Made by a program: the position numbers and the translations under genes. Below, piece by piece: positions 4,760 through 52,112 of a stretch of DNA of 64,000 bases (position 1 is its first letter; every line of letters begins with the position of its first letter). The notes beneath the pieces are model-generated. The model made no database searches. It was not told the origin of the DNA and worked only from the letters and a program-made list of their open reading frames with translations. This stretch comes from a virus (Duplodnaviria > Caudoviricetes): positions 1,617 through 65,616 of IMG/VR virus record IMGVR_UViG_3300025012_000084, one strand, 5' to 3'.

Positions 4760-5377
4760 TTGACCACATATGCCACACTTACTGCGGATATTGGGACGTA
4801 TACCCAGAACAACGACACTGTATTCTTGGCGCAGATACCTTCGTTTATCCGATTGGCCGAGAAGCGCATATACAACGACGTGAAGCTCCCCCATATCCGC
4901 AAGACGGCTGTCGGGGCGTTGACCGTAGGTAGCCGGGCGTACACGCTTCCGACAGACGCCATCAATATCCAGTCGTTCACGATAACGATACCTGTCACAG
5001 GGGAGGTTGTTCACTTGCTGCAAAAGTCCCCTGACTTCATGTCCGAACTGTATCCGGTTCCGGCTACACAGGCGCAACCAAAGTACTTTGGGCATAGTAG
5101 TGGCACCGCAGCAGTAGTCAGCCCTACGCCAGGCGCGGCCTATGTCACAGGGGTCAACTATTTTGGGTACCCCACGTCCATAGTTGATGCTGTCTCAGGG
5201 ACGTCATGGCTTGGTGACAATTACGACCAGCTACTTCTTCATGCGACACTTGTGGAAGCCTACGTGTTCATGAAGGGTTCAAAAGAACTGCTTGATTACT
5301 ATATCAACCTCACAAAAATAGGTCTGGACGAGCTGAAATCAGCGGCCAGCAATATAAACACGTCCGACTACAGGTGA
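4760..5377 (+). CDS. Head-tail adaptor-like protein
   Basis: FIRLAEKRI, LLLHATLVEAY motifs; TTG start after AGGAG. Confidence 0.65.
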   Translation: MTTYATLTADIGTYTQNNDTVFLAQIPSFIRLAEKRIYNDVKLPHIRKTAVGALTVGSRAYTLPTDAINIQSFTITIPVTGEVVHLLQKSPDFMSELYPVPATQAQPKYFGHSSGTAAVVSPTPGAAYVTGVNYFGYPTSIVDAVSGTSWLGDNYDQLLLHATLVEAYVFMKGSKELLDYYINLTKIGLDELKSAASNINTSDYR

Positions 5378-5382
5378 TGTAA

Positions 5383-5823
5383 ATGGCCTTCACTGGATCA
5401 CAAATTTGCACGTCATTTAAAAAAGAGCTTGGGCAGGCCGTGCACAACATGGACACTGCTGGCGATGTATTTAAACTGGCGCTGTACGGAGATACGGCAT
5501 CTATCGACCTGGCAACTACGGCATACACGAGTGCGGGGGAGGTTGTCGGGACAGGTTATTCTGCCGGAGGCATGACGCTGTCAAACTTGGCGGCCAGCTC
5601 CGCGACGTCCGTGTCCGGTGTTCAGACAGCGTTTTTTGGGTGGAGTACAGCGACGTTTTCAGCGGTCACATTATCGTGCAGAGGCGCTCTGATATATAAT
5701 TCATCAAAAGCAAACCGGGCGGTGGCGGTCATCGACTTTGGTATCACAATCGCGAAAACAGCGGCTGATTTAGTAGTGCAAATGCCTGTGTTTGACGCAA
5801 ATAATGCGCTAATTAGAATTTAA
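5383..5823 (+). CDS. Tail-associated structural protein
   Basis: SFKKEL...FKLALY...GTGYSAGG...RGALIYN motifs. Confidence 0.65.
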   Translation: MAFTGSQICTSFKKELGQAVHNMDTAGDVFKLALYGDTASIDLATTAYTSAGEVVGTGYSAGGMTLSNLAASSATSVSGVQTAFFGWSTATFSAVTLSCRGALIYNSSKANRAVAVIDFGITIAKTAADLVVQMPVFDANNALIRI

Positions 5824-5834
5824 CGGAGGCCGAG

Positions 5835-8800
5835 ATGCCAAGCAGTTACTCAGCACTTTTACGCACGGAGCTTGTTGCTGTCGGTGAGCAGTCCGGTACA
5901 TGGGGCACGACCAACAACAAGAACATCGGCACGTTGCTCGAAGCCGCGATATCTGGGATCGCCACGGTTGTTATTCCAGACGCTGACTACACGCTTACCG
6001 CGCTGAATGGCGCTGTGGACGAAGCGCGCTCGATGGGCCTGAACCTTACAGGTGCGCTCACTGGTGCGAAGAACGTAATATGTCCGACGAGTGCGAAGCT
6101 GTACGTTGTGAAGAATGCTACGACCGGAGGGTTTGCCGTGACAGTCAAAACGGCTGCCGGCACTGGCGTTGCGGTTCTCAGCGGCGCGTTCGCTGTTCTT
6201 GAGTGCGACGGTACGAACGTGGTGCAAGTGACGCTGCCTACTGCGTTCACATCGGCTACTTTGGCCGCTGCCGTCACCGACGAAACAGGAACCGGGTCGC
6301 TTGTGTTTGGCACATCCCCTACACTGACTACGCCGACACTTAATTCTCCTGTACTGACTACACCCGCACTCGGCACACCGGCCTCAGGTACGCTGACAAG
6401 CTGTACGGGTTTGCCTGTGGCCACAGGGGTTTCAGGTCTGGGCGCCGGTACAGCGACGTTTCTGGCCACCCCATCCTCTGCGAATCTGGCCGCTGCCGTC
6501 ACCGACGAGACTGGAACCGGAGCGCTTGTGTTCGCGAGCGGGCCGACAATCAGCTCGCCTGTTTTAGTTACACCCGCACTCGGCACACCGGCCTCCGGAA
6601 ACCTGACTAGCTGCACAGGACTTCCTGTGACTACCGGAGTGTCCGGTCTGGGTGCCGGGGCAGCTACGTTTCTGGCCACACCCTCGTCCGCGAATCTGGC
6701 TGCTGCTGTCACCGACGAGACGGGAACTGGAGCACTTGTGTTCGCAGATTCTCCTGCCCTAGCAGGCTTGCCGACCGCGCCTACTGCGGTCGTTGGCACA
6801 GCGACGACTCAGATAGCCACTACCGCGCATGTGGCAGCCACGGCGTTTACGGCAGCGCTGCCCGGACAAGCCGGAAACGCTGGAAAATTTGTCACGACTG
6901 ACGGTGTGAACGCGAGCTGGTCAGCCAATGTGGCTACTGGCGGAGGTACTGCTACCGGAACCAACACCGGAGACAACGCGGTGAACACGCTCTACAGCGG
7001 ATTGGTGAGCAATGTGACGCATACCGGAGATGCAACTGGTGCGACAGGCCTGACCGTGGTGGCAATAAACAGCACAAACATGGCCGCGTTGGCTACTGGG
7101 ATTCTGAAGAACACCACGACTACCGGGGTTCCAAGCATTGCTGTCGCAGGAACGGACTACGTTGCACCATCTGGAGCACTCGGAACACCGGCCTCAGGTA
7201 CGCTGGCGAACTGCTCGGGTCTGCCTGCTACCGGAGTAACGGGCACAGCTGCAACCCTCGGTGCGGCAAACACCTTCACAGCCGCCCAGAACTTCGCCCG
7301 AGCCACCGTGGCCTCGCACGCCACGACCGGCGACATCTGGGGCGCTGCCGGAAATCAAATCGACTGGACGGGCACTGCGACCACAACGGCATTCCCGGAC
7401 GCGCCACAAGCGGGTGCGGAACGTGTGCTGATATGCGCGGGAGCGTGCTCGTTCACGGCTGGTGCAAACATGCTGATTGACGGCGTTGCTTCGGCTTCGA
7501 CTGTGACCTGCGCTGCTAACGACCAAGTGATTGTGCGCGCGGTATCCACTACGCAGTTCAAGTTGTCGCGGGTTAAGTATGATGGGACGGCGCAGGTGAC
7601 TTCACCATCGGACGGCGGTGCGACAATCACTTCCAGCGCGGTCGATATTACGCTCACTTCAGCCAGCACTCGCGTTCAAGTCGTCACAATGACAGCGAGC
7701 GGGAAGGCAGTAACCCTGCCTGACGCCACGACACTTAATGAGGGAGGGGTTCTGTTTGCTGTAAAGAATGTCGGCTCGCACACCTTTGCCGTCAGAAATT
7801 CTGCTGGAACGCTGCTTGCGGTAGTTGCAGGATCACAACTTGCTGCATTTTATCTAAGTGATAACTCTGCTGCTGCTGGTGTTTGGGCTGTAGGAGATGA
7901 AACGCTCGGAGGCGCTATGGATTTTCTACTAGCGCAGGCTGAAGTAACAATCGTTACGGCGACAAACTATTACGCTGACTCTATCGGCATATCTGAAACG
8001 CAAGCAATAGGGGTATGGTATGAATCGCCTAATATTAAAGCATGCACATTGAATGTCAGCGGCACCACGCTTACGGCGGGGGCTATTCTCACAGTGGTCG
8101 CAGAAGCCCCAGATGGCCACTTATCTATAACCGCATTATCAGCAACGCAAGCTGTTGCCGCGTGGCGTAATTCCGGAACTAACATGCGAGCATGCACTTT
8201 GAATGTCAGCGGGACAACACTGACAGCGGGTGCGATTCTCTCAGTGAATGCGACAAACACTGCTTGGGTTTCCGTCACGTCAGTATCTGCAACGCAAGCA
8301 GTTGTTGCGTATTTAGACAATTCCGCCTCAGGAGTAATCCGAGCATGCACATTGAATGTCAGCGGCACCACGCTTACGGCGGGGGCTATTCTCGAAGTTT
8401 TAGCGGCAGCGGCGACTGCTATTTCTGTTGATACATTATCGGCCACGCAGGTAATTTTGTGCTTTAATTATACGGCTTCTACAAGCGTGTATGGATGCAC
8501 ATTGAATGTCAGCGGGACAACACTGACAGCGGGTGCGTTCGCCACCTTTAATACAGGAACAGCAACCTTGGTTTCTGTAGTGGCTTTATCAGAAACAGCA
8601 GCTATTGTGGCATATCGTCCGGCATCTACATTCGTGGAGGTCAAGAGTATGTCTATCAGTGGAACCACCGTTACTCCCGGAACCGGAGTCGCGGTTAATG
8701 CACTTAATTGTGGCTCGATAAGTACATCAAAGATGTCGCCAACGAAAGCACTAGTTGGTTATTCTGGCCCAGCTTTTCCGTTGCACGTCAGCGCACTTCG

Positions 8801-42966: not shown

Positions 42967-44798
42967 CTACCCACTCCTTTCAGTAAACCCCATGACTTGC
43001 CTATCTTCGCGTCCCACGGCAACGGTATCGCCGGAGTCCACCCCCATGCTGATTGATATGGCAGGTTGTTTAACCTGTCCTGTATGCGCGTCACTGTAGT
43101 CAGCGCCCTGTCATCATCTCTTACATATATGAACAGCGCGTCGTGCAAGTCCCACGCATACATCACGTCGTCATTGAACTCGGTCAGCTGTAGCACCGCG
43201 ATAGCCAGCTCCTTCATGTCGCCACCAGTGCCTTGAATCCTGAAGTTGATCGCAGTCTGCTGCTGTTCGTAGATGTTCAGGTTCTTCAGTACGATGCGCC
43301 GATGTCCTCGCGTTTCTGCGTAACCAACTCTCGCGGCCTCCTTGATCGCCGACTTCCAATACCGAAGCACCCCAGGGTACGTTCTGAGGTATGTTGCCTT
43401 GATATGCTCGGCCTTTGACGGTGGAAGATTTAGTCCGTACTGCGTCAGAGCGCGAACCCGGATTGTGTCAGTTCCGATTCTGTACTGCAACGATAAGTTT
43501 GCGAACTTGCCGAGGTTCCGTATGCGCTTGGCCTCCGGGTCTTTGTCCTGCTCGCCGCTCACCCACTGCCATTCTTTTCTCTCGATCTCTGCACCCATAT
43601 AGGCATGTCCGTCGATGCCGTCGAGGAATAGTTTGAGCATCGTCTCGTCCTGCGAGTCGTCAGCCATCAGCCGCATCTCTTGCCCTGACGCGTCGAACTC
43701 GGCGAGAAGGAACCCTTCCGGCGCTTCGAGTATATTCCTCGCCCCTTTTCCGCGCTCCCACTGGTGGAGCGCGATGCCTGTCTGAATCTCTGACTTGCCT
43801 TTTCCTTGCTTCGATGAGTAAGTCATTCGACCAGTGTATGTACCAGCAATAAACGGGCTCGGCCTTGTAATCAGCGCGCCGTGATACGCAGTCGAATCCT
43901 TGACGGCATCCACGAACTTTGACTGCTGCGTGTTTACTTTGCGCACTGCCATCAGCGCTCCGAGTCGCTCGTCATCAAGGTGCTCCAGTTCGAGTGTAAG
44001 AAGAGTCTCTTTGTCGGTGGACGCCGCTCCAGCAGGTGTCGTCTTCACCACACCAAATCCCCAATCTTCAAACAACAGCTTCGCCAGCTTCTTAGGCGAC
44101 GCTATTACGTCAGCAGGTACTCCGAGTTTAGCTTCGGCTGCGACACGCCGCTCACTCACGTCTTTATCAAGCGCAGCCAGCGCCTCCGGGTTTATCGTGA
44201 TGCCATTGATGTGCGACAGCGCGATCGGCGAGAGTCCGAGTGCCTCGTGACGCGCAGCTTTTTTCTCCGGCTCGGTGAGCTGATCGAGATATTCCTGCGC
44301 CAGCAGGTAAGTGAACTTGCTGTCCTTGATGTTGTAGTCAAGCAGTCGCGTCCACTCTTCTTCGGTCTGTGGAACTTTTGTAACATCATCACCTAGTCCG
44401 TAATCGGCATGCTCTGGCCAACGTTTTGCAACAACATCCTTGAGGCTGTACCCACGGCCACCAAGATCCCGGCTGCGCCAGCCGTCAACGCGTTTCAGCA
44501 GCAGCATGGCGTCAATCCAAGTGCATGCGTTGACTTCCTTGGTCAGCCCGATGGCGTGCAACCATGCGATGTCGAACAGCAAGTTCCAGCCCACCAAGAC
44601 GGTCTTGCGTTCAGCGCATGAGACCAGAAACTTTTTGAACCACTCAGTTGATGGCATGCGCACTGCCACCTTCTTTTCATCGCTACGCCACACCGCTACT
44701 GACTTTATTGTCGCCTCGCCAGTTCGTGCTCTCCAAGGTTGAAGGCCGAACTCCGGCACCTCTTGCGGGGTTTCCAGATCGAATCCGCATAGATTCAT
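42963..44798 (-). CDS. DNA polymerase family A with 3'-5' exonuclease
   Basis: FDLET (ExoI), WNLLFD (ExoII), YNIKD (ExoIII), TGRM, DASGQEMR, R...K..NL...Y, IQGTG, HD. Confidence 0.92.
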   Translation of the reverse strand: MNLCGFDLETPQEVPEFGLQPWRARTGEATIKSVAVWRSDEKKVAVRMPSTEWFKKFLVSCAERKTVLVGWNLLFDIAWLHAIGLTKEVNACTWIDAMLLLKRVDGWRSRDLGGRGYSLKDVVAKRWPEHADYGLGDDVTKVPQTEEEWTRLLDYNIKDSKFTYLLAQEYLDQLTEPEKKAARHEALGLSPIALSHINGITINPEALAALDKDVSERRVAAEAKLGVPADVIASPKKLAKLLFEDWGFGVVKTTPAGAASTDKETLLTLELEHLDDERLGALMAVRKVNTQQSKFVDAVKDSTAYHGALITRPSPFIAGTYTGRMTYSSKQGKGKSEIQTGIALHQWERGKGARNILEAPEGFLLAEFDASGQEMRLMADDSQDETMLKLFLDGIDGHAYMGAEIERKEWQWVSGEQDKDPEAKRIRNLGKFANLSLQYRIGTDTIRVRALTQYGLNLPPSKAEHIKATYLRTYPGVLRYWKSAIKEAARVGYAETRGHRRIVLKNLNIYEQQQTAINFRIQGTGGDMKELAIAVLQLTEFNDDVMYAWDLHDALFIYVRDDDRALTTVTRIQDRLNNLPYQSAWGWTPAIPLPWDAKIGKSWGLLKGVGR

Positions 44799-44895
44799 AG
44801 TTACACTCCTTAGATAATTAGTGCCGCTTACGATTATGCGGCGAGTGTGGTTAGTTCCCGCCTTCTTAGGGAAGGCTCGCCCACTCCGATTTCTT

Positions 44896-45168
44896 TTATC
44901 GCTTCATGCTCCCATCCGGATTCCGTGCGAAACTTCTGTTGTCGCTCTTGCTCTTGACCCGGAGATTTCCTTTGCCCACGGCGCCACCTTTGCTCAGCGG
45001 CTTAACATGGTCTACATCAAGCCCGTCAAACGGCTTCACCTTCCCGGCCTTCTCCATGTCGCGGCGGGCTTGCTTGCGCGCGGCGTTCTTCGGGCCTTCG
45101 CCTCGGGCGAGGGAAGTCTTGCGCTCCTGCTTCAGGTCTCTGACATAATTTTTAGAACTTGGGCACAT
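44896..45168 (-). CDS. Small HNH endonuclease
   Basis: DVDHVKPLSKGG...NLRV...NRSF. Confidence 0.85.
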   Translation of the reverse strand: MCPSSKNYVRDLKQERKTSLARGEGPKNAARKQARRDMEKAGKVKPFDGLDVDHVKPLSKGGAVGKGNLRVKSKSDNRSFARNPDGSMKR

Positions 45169-45182
45169 GATTTGATTCTCCT

Positions 45183-45467
45183 TTATCTGAGGGCATTTTC
45201 AGTCTTACACTCAAAAATCTCTACGGCGTCTAATAATGCTTTAGCGGGGGCATCATCATCTAGTGACACAGCGACGTATCGGGCAGTGTTTGCTAAATCT
45301 ATTCCGGCGTGTGTCAGATGCTCAATCTGATCCGGCATTTTGTCATTATCGTCACAGTCTTCGAGTAGTGCGGTCGCGTGTTTTACAAGCTCTCGCTCAA
45401 GCTCTGTAGTAGCAGCCGTATCAGCGTATCGTATCAGTTCCTCGGTTGTCATGCTCGGTAAATACAT
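45183..45467 (-). CDS. Hypothetical protein
   Basis: GGAG RBS; MTTEELIRYA. Confidence 0.6.
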   Translation of the reverse strand: MYLPSMTTEELIRYADTAATTELERELVKHATALLEDCDDNDKMPDQIEHLTHAGIDLANTARYVAVSLDDDAPAKALLDAVEIFECKTENALR

Positions 45468-45512
45468 TTTACTCTCTCCCTCTCGTTATATGATTCCTGT
45501 GTTTAAGTACGC

Positions 45513-45785
45513 TCACCGACCCACCGGTGATTTTCGCGGCAACCCGTTGTTGTAGGGACGCCTCGGAAAGTCATTATTCTTGTTCCGATTCACGCACTCA
45601 ATGCAGCAGCCTGATTTAGTGTATCGGGTGCCGGAGTGACCATTGATGCAGGGTTGGCCTTGATACTTCTTCTCTCCAGACTCATATGCGTTGATTCGGT
45701 TGGTCAGGTCGGCAATGCGCATCATCGCTAGGCGCTTTGTGACCTCGTGCTTGGCGATTGATTTGAGTAGTTTTGCTACTAACAT
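45513..45785 (-). CDS. Zn-ribbon hypothetical protein
   Basis: YQGQPCINGH...RYTKSGCCIEC. Confidence 0.6.
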   Translation of the reverse strand: MLVAKLLKSIAKHEVTKRLAMMRIADLTNRINAYESGEKKYQGQPCINGHSGTRYTKSGCCIECVNRNKNNDFPRRPYNNGLPRKSPVGR

Positions 45786-45970
45786 TTTCGGATACCTAAG
45801 TAATTGCGAACCTTGCGCAATGCGTCGCGAAATTCAATATCCGCGCGAAGCTGCCGCTGTGCATCGAGCACGACCTTAAGCTGTTCCGTCACGGCCTCGT
45901 CGGCTGCGTCCTGTTCTTCAGCGAGCTGCGCCAGCAGTATTGCGCGCTCGGATATTGTGTAGTTTGTCAT
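45779..45970 (-). CDS. Small coiled-coil protein
   Basis: GGAGG RBS; ATGA overlap. Confidence 0.55.
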   Translation of the reverse strand: MTNYTISERAILLAQLAEEQDAADEAVTEQLKVVLDAQRQLRADIEFRDALRKVRNYLGIRKC

Positions 45971-46251
45971 CTCTTTCCTCCACCAGCTCCAAAATGCTGC
46001 GTCCCGCGTATGGCACTCGCTAGATTATTCATTGCCTCAGCGAGTTTCAATATTGTGATGTCCTCAGTTTCCATGCGCTTCCTTTGATCTATATCAATAC
46101 CATACGAGCAAGAACCTCCACCACCCGACGATACGTTAATCGCGTCGGTTTTGAAGGAGCTTCCATTTTGAAGACAAACAGCAGAGCGAAGCAGTCTTAT
46201 TGCTTTAATCATCTGCGCATCATCAGCCTCTTGTAATTTGTTTGTGCTCAT
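45967..46251 (-). CDS. Hypothetical protein
   Basis: GGAGG RBS; ATGA overlap. Confidence 0.55.
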   Translation of the reverse strand: MSTNKLQEADDAQMIKAIRLLRSAVCLQNGSSFKTDAINVSSGGGGSCSYGIDIDQRKRMETEDITILKLAEAMNNLASAIRGTQHFGAGGGKR

Positions 46252-46553
46252 CGTCCCTCCACCTTAGCAGCCGTCCATGTGATATTTGCGAACTCGTAAT
46301 AGTCTTTACCCTCTGTGCGCATGTGGGGGTAACGTCCTGCGAGTATCTCGTGCGCCTCGTGCAGGTTGGCCTCGGCCTTCATCGCGCGAGCCTCGGCTTG
46401 TGCGACAATATGATTGTGATTTCGCACGGTTGATACTGAATACCATAAGCCATATCCGGCCAGGATGATTGCTATAGCCCAGCCGGTGCGGGTCAGAAAG
46501 TTTTTCATGCGGTCTTGATACCGGTCACGCCAGCGGGGTCTGAATCGTTTCAT
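46248..46553 (-). CDS. Single-TM membrane protein
   Basis: AAGGAG RBS; WAIAIILAGYGLWY. Confidence 0.6.
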   Translation of the reverse strand: MKRFRPRWRDRYQDRMKNFLTRTGWAIAIILAGYGLWYSVSTVRNHNHIVAQAEARAMKAEANLHEAHEILAGRYPHMRTEGKDYYEFANITWTAAKVEGR

Positions 46554-46655
46554 TTTTATGCTCCTTTTGTTGTGTAAACTAATAGCTGGAATAGGTGTAA
46601 AACTGCCTTCGTTACAGGATATACCCCTAAATCGGTGCCTAAGATACGTTAGAGG

Positions 46656-46889
46656 TCAACACACTGGGCACCCGCATAAAAATCCATGAGGGCAATATGC
46701 TGCCGCTTCCGCCTCGCACATTTCGTCTACGCACGCAGGGTTGTCGCACCACAAGTATTTATTCCCGCAAGGGCAAATGGACGGGTCTTTGACCTCTAAC
46801 CCTCCGCTCAAGTTCGCTCCGGCTTCGCCTGCGCGGGACTGCGCGCCAGCGGGGTTCCTTTCAATTTCATTCGTTGCTGCCATGTTCAT
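46656..46889 (-). CDS. Cassette gene: Cys-rich protein
   Basis: AAGGAG RBS and ATG inside the attC1 loop; 8 Cys. Confidence 0.65.
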   Translation of the reverse strand: MNMAATNEIERNPAGAQSRAGEAGANLSGGLEVKDPSICPCGNKYLWCDNPACVDEMCEAEAAAYCPHGFLCGCPVC

Positions 46890-46940
46890 ATCTCCTTCAA
46901 AGTTTTGTGAAGCGCGCAGTCCCTTAGCTACACGTTAGAA
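46794..46940 (+). repeat. attC-like site 1 (147 bp)
   Basis: CTCTAAC CCTCC GCTCAAG ... 12-bp stem GGGACTGCGCGC/GCGCGCAGTCCC ... CTTAGC TACAC GTTAGAA. Confidence 0.85.
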
Positions 46941-47263
46941 CCCATCATGAAGCGTCCAGCCTCACGGTTCCATACCGCATCAATCGCAAGCCTGTTTAGG
47001 TCTTCACTGGCACGCGGATCGTCAGCTTCACAACTCACCCATCCGCTTCCCGGTATTAACTTGGCATACCACCCGAATTCTCGGCATTCCATTTCCCCCG
47101 GATATATACATGTCCATTTTATTGAAGGCAGCGCGTGTTCTTCGCAGTCGCACGATATGCGCTGCTCTCCACAATTTGCGCACCGTTCAACATCGCATCC
47201 GGGTTGGTGTTGCTCTCTGGGCGGCACTCCGCAATCCGGGCAATTTCGCAGTTCGTTTCGCAT
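46928..47263 (-). CDS. Cassette gene: Zn-binding protein
   Basis: CPDCGV...H..GCDVERC..CG.Q.ISCDC; ends SNV* within attC1. Confidence 0.7.
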   Translation of the reverse strand: MRNELRNCPDCGVPPREQHQPGCDVERCANCGEQRISCDCEEHALPSIKWTCIYPGEMECREFGWYAKLIPGSGWVSCEADDPRASEDLNRLAIDAVWNREAGRFMMGSNV

Positions 47264-47283
47264 CGCGTTTCTCCGTAGTTGTG

Positions 47284-47346
47284 TTCTAACTTTCCGCTCA
47301 AGCGGGGCTGCGCGCTTTTGCGCAGTCCCTTAGCTACACGTTGGAC
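47284..47346 (+). repeat. attC-like site 2 (63 bp)
   Basis: TTCTAAC TTTCC GCTCAAG ... CTTAGC TACAC GTTGGAC. Confidence 0.9.
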
Positions 47347-47534
47347 ACTTTTCTATCCTTGCAAGAGTTCGACCAATGGCAATTCCCTTTTTGCTCCCAA
47401 GCGCAGTATGGAGGGTAATCGCATTTGCCCTTATTCTCGTAACGCTCCCAAAATGGTTTGCTGGTGTCCAACCCGCCGTTCAACTCGAACTCCGCGCCAG
47501 CGTGGTCGTTTACAGGTTTCATTGTGTCTGCCAT
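47334..47534 (-). CDS. Cassette gene: small Cys-containing protein
   Basis: AAGGA RBS and ATG in the attC3 loop; ends SNV* within attC2. Confidence 0.6.
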   Translation of the reverse strand: MADTMKPVNDHAGAEFELNGGLDTSKPFWERYENKGKCDYPPYCAWEQKGNCHWSNSCKDRKVSNV

Positions 47535-47591
47535 GATTATTTCCTTGTTGAAGTGTTTAGTTGCGCGGAGCCGGTTAACTCTACGTTGGAC
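47466..47591 (+). repeat. attC-like site 3 (126 bp)
   Basis: GTCCAAC CCGCC GTTCAAC ... CTCCGCGC/GCGCGGAG ... GTTAAC TCTAC GTTGGAC. Confidence 0.88.
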
Positions 47592-47595
47592 ACCT

Positions 47596-47853
47596 TCATC
47601 CAAAAGTTGCGGATATTTCTTCGCACTGTGTTTTGATGTCCGTCAAAAATGCCCGTGCTCCGTCAAAAGTCATGCTGCATAATCCACCTCCTGCTTTTAT
47701 GCCAAGCTCTTCTATCACAGCCAACAACATTTCGGTTTCGCGCACATGCTGCGCAGAGAGTGATAGGTATTTGTTTTTGTACTCGCCGTCGGTGTCCAAC
47801 CCGGCGTTCGAGCGCACGGGCAACGGCGCGGCTTCTTTCACAGTTTCATTCAT
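47596..47853 (-). CDS. Cassette gene: hypothetical protein
   Basis: AGGAG RBS and ATG in the attC4 loop. Confidence 0.65.
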   Translation of the reverse strand: MNETVKEAAPLPVRSNAGLDTDGEYKNKYLSLSAQHVRETEMLLAVIEELGIKAGGGLCSMTFDGARAFLTDIKTQCEEISATFG

Positions 47854-47898
47854 GGTTTCTCCTCGCGCCGTTCCCCGGCGCTCAACTCTACGTTAGGC
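47794..47898 (+). repeat. attC-like site 4 (105 bp)
   Basis: GTCCAAC CCGGC GTTCGAG ... AACGGCGCG/CGCGCCGTT ... CTCAAC TCTAC GTTAGGC. Confidence 0.9.
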
Positions 47899-48074
47899 GT
47901 CTTGTCCCGTCCGAGCCAAGTGCACCATGCAGCTATTGCGGCACCCCCCCACCACGGCAGATCAATCCAGTGGTCGCGCACATGCTGGATGTATCCTTCC
48001 AGCCCGTACCAATTTTGGATCATCATCACCACACCAAGGGCGGTCGCTGCCCCCATTGCAAATTGCCTATTCAT
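47850..48074 (-). CDS. Cassette gene: 2-TM membrane protein
   Basis: AAGGA RBS; two hydrophobic segments; tail PNVELS.. runs through attC4. Confidence 0.6.
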   Translation of the reverse strand: MNRQFAMGAATALGVVMMIQNWYGLEGYIQHVRDHWIDLPWWGGAAIAAWCTWLGRDKTPNVELSAGERREEKP

Positions 48075-48103
48075 CGACGCTTCCTTTCTCCGAATCACGA
48101 AGT

Positions 48104-48129
48104 GCGCGCCCCTCAACTACACGTTGGAC
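48104..48129 (+). repeat. attC-like right half (left half lost)
   Basis: GCGCGCCC CTCAAC TACAC GTTGGAC. Confidence 0.7.
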
Positions 48130-48869
48130 ACCACTTCGTTCCATACTGTCGGCTGTCCGGTAACGCTCTCCAAAAAGCACCCATCCAATTTTTCTGGTCG
48201 AACGTACTTTGCAAGGAAGTCCACAACCCAATGTCGCTCGCCACCTTTGCCGGGGTCAATGAGTTCGTTCCGCTCTACGCGCCACATCGCTCCCTCAATC
48301 GGGTCAATCGCGCCGTGATTGCCGTACTCGCCAAGCCGCTTCATTGCCTCTTCAATGCTCAACGCATCCCCGATATGGATAGTGTGCGGTAAAACAAAAC
48401 GCCCGCTTATTCTGGATTGCAGTTCTTCGTGGGTTGCGCGCTTCATTCCTCTCATCAGGTCAAAGGCCACAAACGGCTCATGCGGCAGCTTGTAGCGCGT
48501 ACCGTGAGCCTGCAACAGCCATTCACCCGCCAGCCGTTCGCCGTCGGCCAAAACCTCTGCAAACCGCGCTTCGTTTGCGGAAACCCACTCCCCGAATTTA
48601 TGGTGTTGCATGTATGGCGAGGTGTGCGCCAAGTACCCTGCACGTGTCAGCGCCAGTATTTCTCCGTTGATCTTCGCCACCCCAACATTCGACCCGTCCA
48701 GTTTTTCTTGGACGATGATGCGGTCGTGTTTGTCGCGTACCTTTTCATTGCAAATGCGCTCTTGCCCTTCGTGGCAGCTATGATCCCCCGGCCCCAGTCT
48801 CGACCCAGGAAGGTGTGCAATGCTCCCGTAATTTTTACCACCCAAAGGTTTTGCGTTCTTCTTTTCCAT
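48117..48869 (-). CDS. Cassette gene: RNA ligase (Rnl2-like nucleotidyltransferase)
   Basis: Motif I QEKLDGSN, GEW, FVAFD, EGAMWR, AKYV; AGGAG RBS. Confidence 0.85.
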   Translation of the reverse strand: MEKKNAKPLGGKNYGSIAHLPGSRLGPGDHSCHEGQERICNEKVRDKHDRIIVQEKLDGSNVGVAKINGEILALTRAGYLAHTSPYMQHHKFGEWVSANEARFAEVLADGERLAGEWLLQAHGTRYKLPHEPFVAFDLMRGMKRATHEELQSRISGRFVLPHTIHIGDALSIEEAMKRLGEYGNHGAIDPIEGAMWRVERNELIDPGKGGERHWVVDFLAKYVRPEKLDGCFLESVTGQPTVWNEVVSNV

Positions 48870-48886
48870 TTTCTCGGCTCTCCTAG

Positions 48887-49276
48887 TTAAAATCTGTCCA
48901 ACCCTACGTTCGAGAGCGACGGCGCAAAAGCGCGGCTTCTTTCACACTTTCCGTTCGAGCGCGCCGCCCACCACGCCTCAAATTCTTCGTATGTTTTATT
49001 TTTAACGCAGTACCCGTGCATGTGCCATGCACGGCTTTTTTCTTTTTCCGGCACCGCATCACTAACCGCTCTCCATATCGCATTACATTCAGGGTCAACG
49101 TGCTTTTGTTCGTCGGTCATCGAATCCCAACCATAAGGCTTTCCGATCGGGAGGTTTTCCGGCCATCTGAAACAATTTAGCTCGCAATACCAAGCCGCCA
49201 CTGTTTCGACAGGAAAATCGGCTAACCTAACATTCAACGCGGCTTCCTTTACGTTCTCTAGTTTCTGTTCGTTCAT
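48887..49276 (-). CDS. Cassette gene: hypothetical protein
   Basis: AAGGAG RBS in attC loop; both termini attC-derived. Confidence 0.6.
   Translation of the reverse strand: MNEQKLENVKEAALNVRLADFPVETVAAWYCELNCFRWPENLPIGKPYGWDSMTDEQKHVDPECNAIWRAVSDAVPEKEKSRAWHMHGYCVKNKTYEEFEAWWAARSNGKCERSRAFAPSLSNVGLDRF
48896..48995 (+). repeat. attC-like site, left arm intact, right arm degenerate
   Basis: GTCCAAC CCTAC GTTCGAG ...; possible remnant CTCAAA TTCTTC GTATG. Confidence 0.6.
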
Positions 49277-49327
49277 TTCTTCGTTACTCCTTCCGAGTCA
49301 GCGCAGCCGGCTAACTCTACGTTAGAC
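49220..49327 (+). repeat. attC-like site (108 bp, diverged L boxes)
   Basis: GGCTAAC CTAAC ATTCAAC GCGGCT ... AGCCG GCTAAC TCTAC GTTAGAC. Confidence 0.65.
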
Positions 49328-49539
49328 ACCTCTTGCCACGGGTTCAGTTTCTCGCCTCGATAAACATGACCCTGCACATTTTCCATGCTGTAATTTTTTT
49401 CGTTTGCGTCGCTTACGCGCATCAGCGCAAAAAAATATGGCTGCGGGTACGGATTAGGAAAAGTGTTCGCCATTTCCCACCCATCGTTCACCATGATGTT
49501 GATAATTCGAGTATCGCCTTCTACGAGTTCATATCTCAT
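49273..49539 (-). CDS. Cassette gene: hypothetical protein
   Basis: GGAG RBS; tail SNVELAG.. through attC; ATGA overlap. Confidence 0.6.
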   Translation of the reverse strand: MRYELVEGDTRIINIMVNDGWEMANTFPNPYPQPYFFALMRVSDANEKNYSMENVQGHVYRGEKLNPWQEVSNVELAGCADSEGVTKK

Positions 49540-49562
49540 GTATATCTCCGTTACTACGAGTT

Positions 49563-49618
49563 GTCCAACCCTACGCCCAACCGGACTGGCCTACGGCCCG
49601 GTTATTTTCACGTTATGC
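49563..49618 (+). repeat. attC-like site (56 bp)
   Basis: GTCCAAC CCTAC GCCCAACCGG .. GGCC TAC GGCC CGGTTA .. CAC GTTATGC. Confidence 0.75.
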
Positions 49619-49970
49619 GCCTAGTACAGCGCGTATTAAAGTAGACCGCTCCGTCAGCGTTCTCCCGGTAGATAAAACAACCCGCAGATGCACAGCTTGG
49701 TATGTGGCGGCACCAATAAAAAACCATTTGGCTCTCATGTCCATCGTTGTCTTCGATGAGCATGAAATGACCGGGCTTGATTTCCTTGAGCCGGGTGCCT
49801 TCGACTTGCTTTGCCAGCTTCGCGGCCTTTGGGTTGCAGCTGACCTTCTTTGTCTTGCAATTCACTGGATCGCCGGAAATCGTCAGGGCGCCAACAAGAA
49901 CAACTTCAGCCAATTCCGTAGTGATTTCAACGGGGCCGATGCCGGTGATTTTGATGGTTGCTTGGGTCAT
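49608..49970 (-). CDS. Cassette gene: hypothetical protein
   Basis: AAGGAG RBS; stop in the neighbouring attC spacer. Confidence 0.6.
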   Translation of the reverse strand: MTQATIKITGIGPVEITTELAEVVLVGALTISGDPVNCKTKKVSCNPKAAKLAKQVEGTRLKEIKPGHFMLIEDNDGHESQMVFYWCRHIPSCASAGCFIYRENADGAVYFNTRCTRRIT

Positions 49971-49998
49971 TTGAATCTCCTTTGTTGTCTGCTTGGGA

Positions 49999-50028
49999 GC
50001 GCCGCGCCCCTTAATTCAAACGTCGGGC
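49999..50028 (+). repeat. attC-like right half with variant core GTCGGGC
   Basis: GCGCCGCGCCC CTTAAT TCAAAC GTCGGGC. Confidence 0.55.
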
Positions 50029-50046
50029 GTCATCCTTGTGAACGCG

Positions 50047-50199
50047 TTAGCCACCATTAAGCACGGCAATCCCGTATACAATCACCCAAGCGCCCGCAAC
50101 AGTTAAAGCGGCTGGGACGCTCCATGCCAAGCCAGCGGCGGCGGAAATCATTAGCGCACCAACAGATAGCATAAGCCAGCCTTTTACGATTTGTTTCAT
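50047..50199 (-). CDS. Cassette gene: small 2-TM membrane protein
   Basis: MKQIVKGWLMLSVGALM...; TAA stop overlaps the core site. Confidence 0.55.
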   Translation of the reverse strand: MKQIVKGWLMLSVGALMISAAAGLAWSVPAALTVAGAWVIVYGIAVLNGG

Positions 50200-50240
50200 C
50201 ACGAAAATCCCTTTAAAAATACCGCTCTTCTTGGGTAGGC

Positions 50241-50265
50241 GGCTAACCCTACGCTCAACCTCGTT
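50241..50265 (+). repeat. attC-like left half (array end)
   Basis: GGCTAAC CCTAC GCTCAAC; 9/10 complementary to GTTAGCCACC at 50046. Confidence 0.65.
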
Positions 50266-50494
50266 TAATGAGAATTCCATCCCGCTTTATTAGTCCGGCG
50301 CGTTCAAAAAATACCATGCACTTACCGAACTCATCCTCGCTGCGCCAGTCTATTCCAAGCAGCTTTAACCCGTATCCGAGCTGCAATCCGTCAATGTTGC
50401 TGATATGCGTCCATGTTGGCGGCAATATCGCTTTTATATTGTCTGCGTTGGCTTCCATCCATTGCCGGTTTCCAAGTGTGTCTTGTAGTCCCAT
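50255..50494 (-). CDS. Hypothetical protein
   Basis: GGAG RBS before MGLQD. Confidence 0.55.
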   Translation of the reverse strand: MGLQDTLGNRQWMEANADNIKAILPPTWTHISNIDGLQLGYGLKLLGIDWRSEDEFGKCMVFFERAGLIKRDGILIKRG

Positions 50495-50666
50495 TTCGTT
50501 CTCCAATTCCTGCAAAATTGACGCACAACCTACGCGAAGTGCCTCGCCAAAATCTGTCGCCGCCTTGATAGCGCAACGAATTTTGCTTTGTCAAAACCAA
50601 TATCTTTTGCTTTGGCTTCGCATTAGTACAAATTCATGTTATACCTCCACAAAAACCCTGTTCATC

Positions 50667-51020
50667 TCAGACCCCCACACCTGTGGTACGCCCGTGGCTA
50701 AGCCCGGCGAGCGGACTGGTAGGCAAGTCATTTTGCCTTGGGCCCGTCAGTCCGAACTTCGTGCAGTAAGCCGTCATTGTAGTTCGTGTCTGTATATCCG
50801 CACGGCCACTCTCAGCGTCTTTAGTGTAAGCAACCTTGTTCAGGTCGTCAACGCTCACATGCAAGAACCGCAGCGGATCGTCACCTTCGAGTTTGATCGG
50901 GGTGTATTGGTTCGATTGAACCCTGGCAGCCTCCCTGGCGATCCAGAAATTGTCGTCGGTAAGGAACGCAGCGCTCAGCGCGGCGGCTTCGAACTGCTCT
51001 TTCGATGTGATCTTTTCCAT
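50667..51020 (-). CDS. Hypothetical protein, paralogous to a domain of 53249-55312
   Basis: AGGAGG RBS; RFLHVS...VAYTKD...DIQTR. Confidence 0.6.
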   Translation of the reverse strand: MEKITSKEQFEAAALSAAFLTDDNFWIAREAARVQSNQYTPIKLEGDDPLRFLHVSVDDLNKVAYTKDAESGRADIQTRTTMTAYCTKFGLTGPRQNDLPTSPLAGLSHGRTTGVGV

Positions 51021-51100
51021 TTTGATCCTCCTAAATGTTGAAGTAATGTTGAAGTGTGAGCCGCTTATCGGTAGCTTTACGCGTGAGCTTCTTCGAGCCA

Positions 51101-51661
51101 CTACCCTCCAAAATAAAACTCATTTGCGTAAGCGAGCAGCGTGTTCTGCTCCGCGTCGAAGTATCGAGTCCAAGGCGTACCCCAATCCTGGTACTCTAGC
51201 CACGCTCGATACGGCTGGCAGCGCGCGTCCAGTCCGCCCATAATGCGTACCGCTGGGCCGCCGGTGCAGAGCAGTATCTCGAACTCTTCCGCCAGGATGT
51301 GGTTTTTGACTCGCTTGCACTCCTGTTCCAACTGTCCGGGCTCCATCCACCCGCTTCGCACCTGAACCGACAACGGGTCTTCCTGGATACGGTCGCGCGC
51401 GGCGCCTTGGTTTTCACAACCATCTGCGGCTTCGAGAAGCTCGACGAGTTCTTCGCCTTTATCAAAATCCCACGTCGTCAGCGCTGCGCGAGCCAGACCT
51501 TGCTCTACATTTGTGTAATCTGCGGCCTCCGACACCAGATCGGCGCGCTCGGCTTTCAAAGCATCCAGCCGGACGTAATCGACCTCAAGTGCGGCAACCA
51601 TGTCGCAGATGCTGTCGTATTGAGCTTTTGCCTGCTCAAGGGCGTAGTTTGGTTCAGTCAT
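51101..51661 (-). CDS. Conserved phage hypothetical protein
   Basis: GGAGG RBS; PLSVQVRSGW, ILLCTGGPAVRI, LEYQDWGTPW. Confidence 0.7.
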   Translation of the reverse strand: MTEPNYALEQAKAQYDSICDMVAALEVDYVRLDALKAERADLVSEAADYTNVEQGLARAALTTWDFDKGEELVELLEAADGCENQGAARDRIQEDPLSVQVRSGWMEPGQLEQECKRVKNHILAEEFEILLCTGGPAVRIMGGLDARCQPYRAWLEYQDWGTPWTRYFDAEQNTLLAYANEFYFGG

Positions 51662-51932
51662 TTTGATTTGCCTCCAAATCATTTATCAAATCGCGCAGCT
51701 CTTACTGCAATTCTGTTGTGTAATCCGATACCGCGTTGCGTCTTCACACCTATGATTGTCATTTCCAATCTCCTTGAAGTTCGTCAACATAGTCGATATG
51801 GATTCCGGCGATCAAGCCGCTGCGCATGACCCCCTCCATCACATCCCAGACAAGCAGTTCGGCTTCATCCTCATCTTCTGCGGTCACGACCACCCCTGCG
51901 ACAACTACAAATTTTTTCATTTCCAATCTCCT

Positions 51933-52112
51933 TTAATCAACCGCTACGTGCGTTACCGACTCACCATCTATCTCGGCCAGCTCCACATGCACCATGTGAT
52001 GCTTCGACCTCGGCGCCCGGAAGTGTGCTATCGCTTTTGTCTTCGCCTCGAACAGCGTCGCCGCGCGCAGCTCAACTGTACTTCCGTTATAAAACCCGAT
52101 GTATCCGTTCAT
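51933..52112 (-). CDS. Small hypothetical protein
   Basis: MNGYIGFYNG...EAKTKA; ATGA overlap. Confidence 0.6.
   Translation of the reverse strand: MNGYIGFYNGSTVELRAATLFEAKTKAIAHFRAPRSKHHMVHVELAEIDGESVTHVAVD

Follow-up and report, generated by a model that had tools for sequence, protein, structure and literature searches.

A probable cluster of attC sites in a groundwater phage, with genes on the attC bottom strand whose ends would come from neighbouring attC sites

Clusters of attC sites lacking an integron integrase (CALINs) have been described in virulent phages, 17 of them by Qi et al. (2023, PMC9892861), whose main text states that IntI1 recombined five of six phage attC sites tested. 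Gene ends that depend on a neighbouring cassette have also been described, in attI1: the short frame ORF-11 spans the point of crossover and is closed by a stop in the core site of the first cassette (Hanau-Bercot et al., as presented in the review PMC8876359), and ORF-18 is the same frame with seven more residues, where the neighbour offers no stop at that place; according to that review both couple translation to the next gene by terminating close to its start, and translation into an attC raises the expression of the downstream cassette (Jacquier et al., cited there). In most resistance cassettes the attC overlaps the gene's stop codon, in the wording of the relevant passage of PMC11511950, and partial loss of an attC can fuse the frames of neighbouring cassettes, fusions being rare accidents in the account that PMC4670013 gives of them. 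Here we describe a row of attC-like repeats between small genes of a groundwater phage (Duplodnaviria; Caudoviricetes; IMG/VR virus record IMGVR_UViG_3300025012_000084), which is likely to be a CALIN whose genes lie on the attC bottom strand and receive their ends and stops from the neighbouring attC.

The stretch that we analysed, hereafter the window, takes in 64,000 bases of a virus record that is 65,616 bases long and rated complete by CheckV. Its minus strand carries the genes of 32.5–59 kb, and within them, in the early/replication gene block, nine small genes lie at 46.8–49.6 kb with repeats between them. On the coding strand the repeats are laid out as RYYYAAC, five bases, an inner box, a loop, an inner box, five bases and GTTRRRY. 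The motif YYAACGTRKAGYT occurs in six copies, all on the minus strand (46926-49325), where 0.03 would be expected, and none of 100 shuffles reached six; a motif for the other half of the repeat has three copies (0.05 expected). Of the nine genes, a single one could be assigned to a family, as an RNA ligase (PF09414, E 2.8e-18), and a megablast search of positions 44000-52000 against the phage collection found no match. As in the CALINs described by Qi et al. in their main text, several attC alternate with small genes in a phage that lacks an integron integrase, and methyltransferases are among the cargo of related loci (L008 and L047; related loci carry L numbers throughout). The abstract and section 3.4 of that paper mention neither box-crossing genes, nor starts in loops, nor a frame preference, and the supplementary tables of the paper may bear on orientation.

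Five genes of the cluster lack a stop of their own and cross the core box in the same frame, with its AAC read as Asn, and their exact ends on the minus strand agree with those that the original prediction had drawn from the letters alone. Three of them read TCY AAC GTG TAG, so that 46928-47263 ends in GSNV and stop, and 47334-47534 and 48117-48869 both end in VSNV and stop. The two others continue for 13-15 further codons past the box before they stop, the gene at 47850-48074 ending in TPNVELSAGERREEKP and that at 49273-49539 in VSNVELAGCADSEGVTKK. The rule offered for this difference, that a TACAC spacer stops the frame at once and a TCTAC spacer lets it read on, also holds: on the coding strand GTGTA followed by G gives an immediate TAG, and with GTAGA followed by G reading continues. 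The stops of the two long tails are the TGA of an ATGA at 47853-47850 and at 49276-49273, and in both cases the proposed overlap with the start codon of the following gene (47596-47853 and 48887-49276, respectively) is real. The proposed junction, AAC/G with the slash marking the crossover, is one base off, as integron biology leads one to expect the crossover at AA/C. In a sixth gene, 48887-49276, both AAC boxes of a degenerate site stand in the same frame (...ARSNGK...SLSNVGLDRF and stop). Two genes are exceptions: 47596-47853 has its own TGA 13 nt ahead of the crossover point, and 49608-49970 is in another frame at the box (ATA ACG TGA).

To compare the repeats with attC sites we built a covariance model, R1, from 12 aligned compact sites of the window and related loci, using box pairs only. 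With filters off, R1 gave ten window matches at E ≤ 10, four of them at E < 0.05 and all on the minus strand (47284-47346, which is a training sequence, 48896-48959, 47798-47894 and 49563-49618), and over 34 loci (322,564 bases) it gave 68 matches at E ≤ 1. The model recognises an accepted attC, that of aadA1 in R100 (35 bits, E 1.9e-5). In the 62 matches that reach E ≤ 0.01, pairing of the inner (L) helix amounts to 93.9%, and seven of nine pairs are changed on both sides; the covariation score was 0.274 against 0.104 for shuffles (0 of 500 reached it) and at most 0.102 with slid partners, in an alignment that was fitted to R1 and so favours the structure. Numbering the sites of the window from 1 to 8, inverted core boxes and inner L boxes about five unpaired bases apart are complete in sites 1-4, 6 and 8. 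Folded as single-strand DNA, site 4 (z -5.07) is like the controls, aadA1 (-4.87) and the L008 site (-4.26), and the extrahelical bases are confined to one arm, two being unpaired on the 3' arm in site 4 and in both controls. The array shares with CALINs that at least two close sites lie on one strand with no integron integrase nearby.

Recombination at attC has its crossover in one box only, at G/TT on the top strand, which is AA/C at the 5' end of the bottom strand. The extra bases, which stay unpaired, belong to the 5' arm of the coding (top) strand in aadA1 of R100; on the coding strand of the phage sites the extra G falls in the 3' arm. R1 has the phage coding strand as its basis, and its match to the aadA1 attC is confined to the strand that does not encode aadA1; relative to intI the modelled strand has the same geometry in all five integrase-anchored arrays (R100, L022/L039, L041, L028 and L023). 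In L022 the gene adjacent to intI ends in GCATAA/C and has an attC upstream and none downstream. Family matches on the modelled strand are the RNA ligase, an N6_N4 methylase, DUF551 (twice), DUF3850 and a PHROG DNA methyltransferase. The bottom strand of attC is accordingly the one that encodes the phage genes, and therefore the box that they cross is the crossover box and the sequence past AA/C is the neighbour's; attC polarity thus bears out the claim that the neighbouring attC supplies the C-termini, with reading frames that cross the crossover point and find their stop in the neighbour's sequence. A measure of strand by open reading frame (ORF) cover called the phage cassette bodies bottom in 7 cases, top in 1 and ambiguous in 24, and the bacterial bodies top in 8, bottom in 2 and ambiguous in 10; with 34 of 52 bodies ambiguous we set it aside as weak. 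A Pfam search of the bacterial cassette ORFs was blank for most. The published phage CALIN TJE1 gave one marginal R1 match (17.7 bits, E 0.054) on the strand opposite its genes, so bottom-strand coding is not the rule for all phage CALINs; by that one match TJE1, unlike the window, has its genes on the top strand. Loci in which genes lie on the bottom strand, the reverse of aadA1, form a group made up of the window array (46794-49618, minus strand), L008, L013, L030-L038 and L047.

The resemblance to ORF-11 and ORF-18, as the review describes them, is close in that a frame overlaps the crossover, uses the neighbour's stop and has its length set by the neighbour (11 versus 18 residues). Those two are short leader peptides that start in attI on the top strand and were tested experimentally, as the review reports, whereas in the present case, known from sequence alone, it is full-size bottom-strand genes (66-250 aa) that run across attC boxes. 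In the resistance cassettes of PMC11511950, as that source's passage on them has it, the attC comes from the gene's own cassette and the end is self-contained; here it is the neighbour's attC. A full-text literature search, viewed through titles and abstracts, found no bottom-strand attC protein genes crossing the box in a preferred frame, which is not proof of absence.

Reading frames at the box were tallied over 70 sites, namely 60 of the 68 R1 matches, the four window matches and six sites that we picked out visually (four of the window and one each of L002 and L022). The eight matches dropped were two without AAC where it was expected, two at a contig end, one partial, one at E 0.92, R100 and L041. 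As the upstream frame we used, at each site, the longest frame between two stops that had 45 codons or more and whose end fell from -40 to +110 relative to the crossover; 43 of 46 phage sites have one. With AAC read as Asn (frame A), 13 of these stop at the next-but-one codon (+4) and another 13 later; nine are in frame B and end on a TAA within the box, one reads through in frame B, one crosses in frame C and six stop ahead of the box. The 37 frames that reach the box are divided 26 A : 10 B : 1 C, which differs from equal use (chi-square 26.0, p 2.3e-6), so the frames across the core sites are not random, as had been anticipated, and a frame preference exists across phage attC clusters. Locus L047 adds four sites, two with a stop ahead of the box and two scored as TAA in the box. 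Such a frame convention may serve cassette interchange. Gene 48887-49276, which reads through a degenerate attC, is like the fused cassettes of PMC4670013, which by the account given there are accidents; box crossing here, in contrast, is the majority state (26 of 43).

Homologues of the cassette genes were compared at their ends. In the family of the gene at 47850-48074 (g5), compared at the protein level only, the body is kept through ...TPN in seven of seven members, after which the tails diverge: A and stop, T and stop, VELSAGERREEKP and stop, ATMTGLAPEKG and stop, TELSGDAPQAQRPA and stop, VEVSGLAP... and GQGKP...; a search with the family profile found no viral locus. For the gene at 49273-49539 (g8), the SNVELAG... 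tail is present in 0 of 23 homologues, the closest of which (75% identical) ends ...PWQDTLDL. Several g8 homologues (P0005, P0020, P0021 and P0024) have an SSB-like acidic ...(D/E)IPF tip, where the window copy has an attC-derived tail instead, and judged from these sequences it looks as if a cassette boundary had cut off the native end of g8. In the family of the gene at 46928-47263 (g1; 33 proteins), P0029 ends ...PANA and P0028 continues as ...SANVGLTGRP.... Two further copies of one gene, at 2457-2699 of L032 and 3390-3665 of L033, are 85% identical over 80 residues and have different attC sites behind them; the first ends ...KAANV and the second ...KAANVEVRGDASRRPS. Finally, contigs of runs X1 and X3 hold a variant of the RNA ligase gene from a different genome (95 differences in 749 bases, i.e., ~87% identical), which matches the window only over 48121-48869, from the ATG to 3 nt past AA/C; the contig is unlike the window on both sides and its depth is about 3 (X1) to 10 (X3) times that of the phage. 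Run X1 may come from the very sample that yielded the window. Tails do therefore differ between homologues after the Asn codon, as the original prediction expected, in the g5, g8 and g1 families, in the L032/L033 pair and in the RNA ligase variant.

The prediction also took the tails to couple translation. In the window, where the two ATGA overlaps are real, such coupling would be possible; it is not general: of the 13 long tails in frame A only the two window cases have an ATGA overlap, and three others have a near candidate start (at -14, -5 and +6). The arms of site 4 recur in L047 and L048, where the first conserved block, identical at 46 of 48 letters (compared by eye), includes the ATGA. 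In L047 the start carried by the attC opens a DNA methyltransferase gene, and the true upstream gene (phrog_2428, E 3e-29) already ends 35 nt ahead of the box. We had taken L047 as a second upstream gene with the same tail and withdrew this because of that earlier stop. The overlap is a property of that attC, since L047 keeps the ATGA although its upstream gene stops early. Start codons with ribosome-binding sites (RBS) lie inside attC loops in the window (46889, 47534, 47853 and 49276, minus strand), in L034 (4094-4234), in L047 (6341-6443) and in L002 (13520). With the start in the attC loop, translation takes in the 3' arm and box, which become an N-terminal leader (for instance ...NGGLD or ...SGGLE); the leaders of window gene 46656-46889 and of L034 4145-4402 are 53% identical over 45 aligned residues, and the proteins otherwise differ.

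The same attC family stands beside integron integrases in five bacterial contigs and occurs in at least 13 other phage contigs; a 19-letter 3'-arm pattern was found in nine bacterial and ten viral contigs. The bacterial contigs are labelled Nitrosomonas, Methylomicrobium, Azoarcus, Nitrosomonadales, Halothiobacillus and others. Three of the five bacterial genomes searched have an integrase over the TIGR02249 cut-off (471-491 bits); the arrays adjoin such integrases in L022/L039 and L041, and in L028 and L023 integrase homologues (64-87% identical) or fragments lie beside the arrays. An 85-nt attC of the Methylomicrobium array is near-identical to sites in the phage contigs L030, L035 and L038. 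In that array (L022 1-2931) the three cassettes proximal to attI and intI apparently have bottom-strand genes pointing to intI, one of two scored bodies being clearly bottom and the third read by eye. One attC of these three cassettes is near-identical to sites in three phage contigs, and it looks as if a bacterial integron had recently taken up cassettes of the phage type.

Several of our own observations weigh against the CALIN reading. Neither TIGR02249 nor PF00589 has a match across the 65,616-base record, which holds no integron integrase and no other tyrosine recombinase, and R1 is self-built and not the curated IntegronFinder model. Only two of the seven window sites that were folded beat their shuffles (site 4, z -5.07, and site 1, z -2.09); sites 2, 3, 6, 7 and 8 were no better than shuffles, four of them with z from -1.04 to +0.76, site 5 is a half-site, and several of the window sites are degenerate or half. 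Because the fold and half-site results differ from site to site, we call the array mixed: it is made up of good, long-looped and decayed sites. Six of the 70 tallied sites were picked by eye, and the mechanical tally can misassign, as at one L047 site scored as TAA in the box, where the SSB gene that really lies upstream ends ~35 nt earlier. The flanks of the L032/L033 and L047/window pairs differ on both sides, so these pairs alone do not tell which side travels with the attC, and runs X1, X3 and X4 showed the array of this phage in no rearranged form. Some of this would also suit intergenic hairpins of the phage that share no more than a resemblance with attC (terminators, sites of RNA processing or the phage's own recombination hot spots), given the translation signals in the loops, the place of the sites between co-transcribed genes and the missing integrase; as R1 finds both the bona fide R100 attC and arrays beside integrases well identified by TIGR02249, and as architecture and covariation fit attC, we rate this as highly improbable.

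Alternatively, the orientation could be the textbook one, in which the downstream attC belongs to the gene's own cassette, tails and stops travel with the gene, and the neighbour would contribute no more than the six bases that end the far box. An attC is near-palindromic, both strands reading RYYYAAC...GTTRRRY, the marginal TJE1 match lies opposite its genes, and the units conserved between L047 and the window have symmetrical limits, AAC and GTT. Against these points stand the unpaired bases in the 3' arm of the coding strand, the reverse of aadA1; the match of R1 to the aadA1 attC on the non-coding strand only; the constant geometry of the integrase-anchored arrays; the attI-proximal gene of L022 with its attC upstream; and the g5 family, which keeps its body and not its tail. 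We find the textbook orientation decidedly unlikely. Under a fossil origin the sites would be immobile, decaying remnants, the stop-less genes products of genome compaction, whose own stops were lost because the repeat's stop lies just behind, and there would be no convention serving exchange. Half-sites and weakly folding sites, a phage without a recombinase and the lack of any variant of its array in the three runs fit such decay, and stop loss would be cheap, as the common attC types have stops within 8 nt in all three frames and the reference attC of aadA1 has, on its bottom strand, a TGA at +4 in the same frame. Compaction alone leaves 26 A versus 1 C unexplained, however, as frame C too meets early stops; moreover, these samples contain further contigs, of higher depth, with the same attC arms, which unrelated phage contigs also carry, and the near-identical 85-nt attC is common to a bacterial integron and three phage contigs. 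On balance we regard a fossil array as unlikely.

Under the reading that we favour, a CALIN with bottom-strand genes that borrow their ends, each attC would lie at the 5' side of its own gene, often with the RBS and start of that gene in its loop, and the gene upstream would run into 5'-RYYYAA/C, the box that an integrase would cut. Genes would be packed up to this box. Some would end on the TAA inside it; in most, AAC would be read as Asn with no stop of the gene's own, and the next attC would give the last residues and the stop. The borrowed end would be N-x-stop where the spacer contains TAG or TGA, and otherwise a longer peptide encoded by the attC arm, and in the two window cases the borrowed frame would end on the ATGA that overlaps the next start, making termination-reinitiation possible. 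Presumably a host integrase moves the units, and the tails are probably made, and tolerated rather than functional. A bolder version, which we put forward only tentatively and would not ourselves expect to hold, is that in one lineage of phage cassettes the attC, read on its bottom strand, acts as a portable translation adaptor that ends the upstream gene and starts the downstream one. It would offer stops in the frames used, or else a short neutral tail, and its loop and 3' arm would bring an RBS, an ATG and in some cases a leader peptide; stop-less or start-less bodies would be exchangeable, exon-like modules whose protein ends come from their neighbours, and the Asn-frame rule would be a grammar that keeps swaps productive.

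The sites and genes of the array, all on the minus strand, are as follows. The attC-like site 1 (46794-46940) has a 5' box TTCTAAC crossed by g1 and a 3' box GTTAGAG, and its long loop contains the RBS and ATG (46889) of gene 46656-46889; its DNA fold has -24.9 kcal/mol (4 of 200 shuffles were equal or better at the z given above), and R1 matches it weakly, in its 5' part only (10.3 bits, E 4.6). Gene g1 (46928-47263) encodes 111 aa ending in GSNV, without a stop ahead of the crossover point. Site 2 (47284-47346) is a compact attC of 63 nt that gives the V and stop to g2; its 64.2 bits with R1 are those of a training sequence, its fold alone is not significant (z -0.98), and a search with its 20-mer found one other viral contig (L002) and no genome contig. 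Gene g2 (47334-47534) encodes 66 aa from the ATG at 47534 and ends in VSNV. That ATG lies with its RBS in the long loop of attC-like site 3 (47466-47591), the 3' arm of which is translated as ...ELNGGLDT and whose upstream gene, 47596-47853, stops ahead of the box; the two R boxes pair in the fold, with z only -1.04. A variant of site 3 (47492-47568) in runs X1, X3 and X4 has an 8-nt loop in place of the 75-nt loop with the g2 start; as seen in contigs of X1 and X3 it is weak, its matching sides being only 20 nt.

Site 4 (47794-47898) gives g5 the tail VELSAGERREEKP and its stop at the ATGA of 47853-47850, and its loop holds the start of gene 47596-47853. Its fold has -26.4 kcal/mol (0 of 200 shuffles equal), with the unpaired bases on the 3' arm, and it scores 20.4-33.8 bits with R1 (match 47798-47894). 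Gene g5 (47850-48074) encodes a small hydrophobic protein of 74 aa that ends in TPN before the attC tail. Site 5 (48103-48129) is a 5' half only, which gives the V and stop to the RNA ligase gene; a 3' arm was sought there and not found, and 23 nt of it are identical to a stretch within a complete attC of L013 (1968-2030). The RNA ligase gene (g6, 48117-48869; the PF09414 match named above) encodes 250 aa ending in VSNV. Site 6 (48896-48959) is a degenerate attC inside the 3' end of gene 48887-49276, in frame throughout (R1 24.2 bits, E 0.0017; fold not significant). The last 25 codons of that gene span this complete but degenerate attC, and the gene may be a fused cassette. In the attC-like site 7 (49220-49327) the 5' arm is good and the 3' arm weak. 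Site 7 gives the tail VELAGCADSEGVTKK to g8 (49273-49539, 88 aa), with the ATGA at 49276-49273; its fold is not significant, and its arm was found in no other viral contig. Site 8 (49563-49618) is a compact attC (R1 18.5 bits, E 0.043; fold not significant) that gene 49608-49970 crosses in another frame (I-T-stop).

Relatives of the phage by its DNA polymerase or RNA ligase add little to the array itself. Of the DNA polymerase relatives L013 alone was useful, and it has no cassette in common with the window; L001 ends short of the array, L012 and L015-L019 are too short, and L014 has a single marginal R1 match without an AAC box. The RNA ligase relatives L003-L007 have no attC nearby and are uninformative on switching. 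At 2026-2227 of L013 there is a cassette of ~190 nt without a convincing ORF, whose ends are a 17-nt perfect inverted repeat extending the core boxes; we considered this extended box pairing as a test of the crossover side and dropped it, as it is symmetric under both models. In L047, a further phage CALIN, an SSB gene (4975-5403, with an ...NDIPF end) and the phrog_2428 gene (5972-6310) adjoin attC sites, and the product of the latter may resemble anti-CBASS proteins of the Acb2 type. The 5' arm of site 4 (47848-47901) is present in contigs of the same samples (runs X1, X3 and X4) at a depth of 38, against ~10 for the phage. Together with the site 3 variant it is a weak hint, on matching sides of 20-54 nt, that the same attC arms may be carried by other, more abundant genomes of the same samples. 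Two apparent rearrangements, a joint 46937>47470 and an entry 47306>49991, had short sides or foreign letters between them, and we read them as cross-matches to the attC of other organisms and not as deletions.

Neighbour-supplied stops have a precedent in ORF-11 and ORF-18, as these are set out in PMC8876359, and the array described here is a twist on a known kind of element. If the genes of such cassettes are not self-contained, the same gene would yield different protein ends depending on the array in which it stands, and annotation or homology-based calling of the ends of cassette proteins would be predictably wrong. Shuffling of cassettes would then alter protein tails, and possibly the coupling of expression, beyond gene order, and the strand of the gene, bottom in this group of phages and mostly top in the bacterial arrays that we covered, would be a marker for gene flow between phages and chromosomal integrons.

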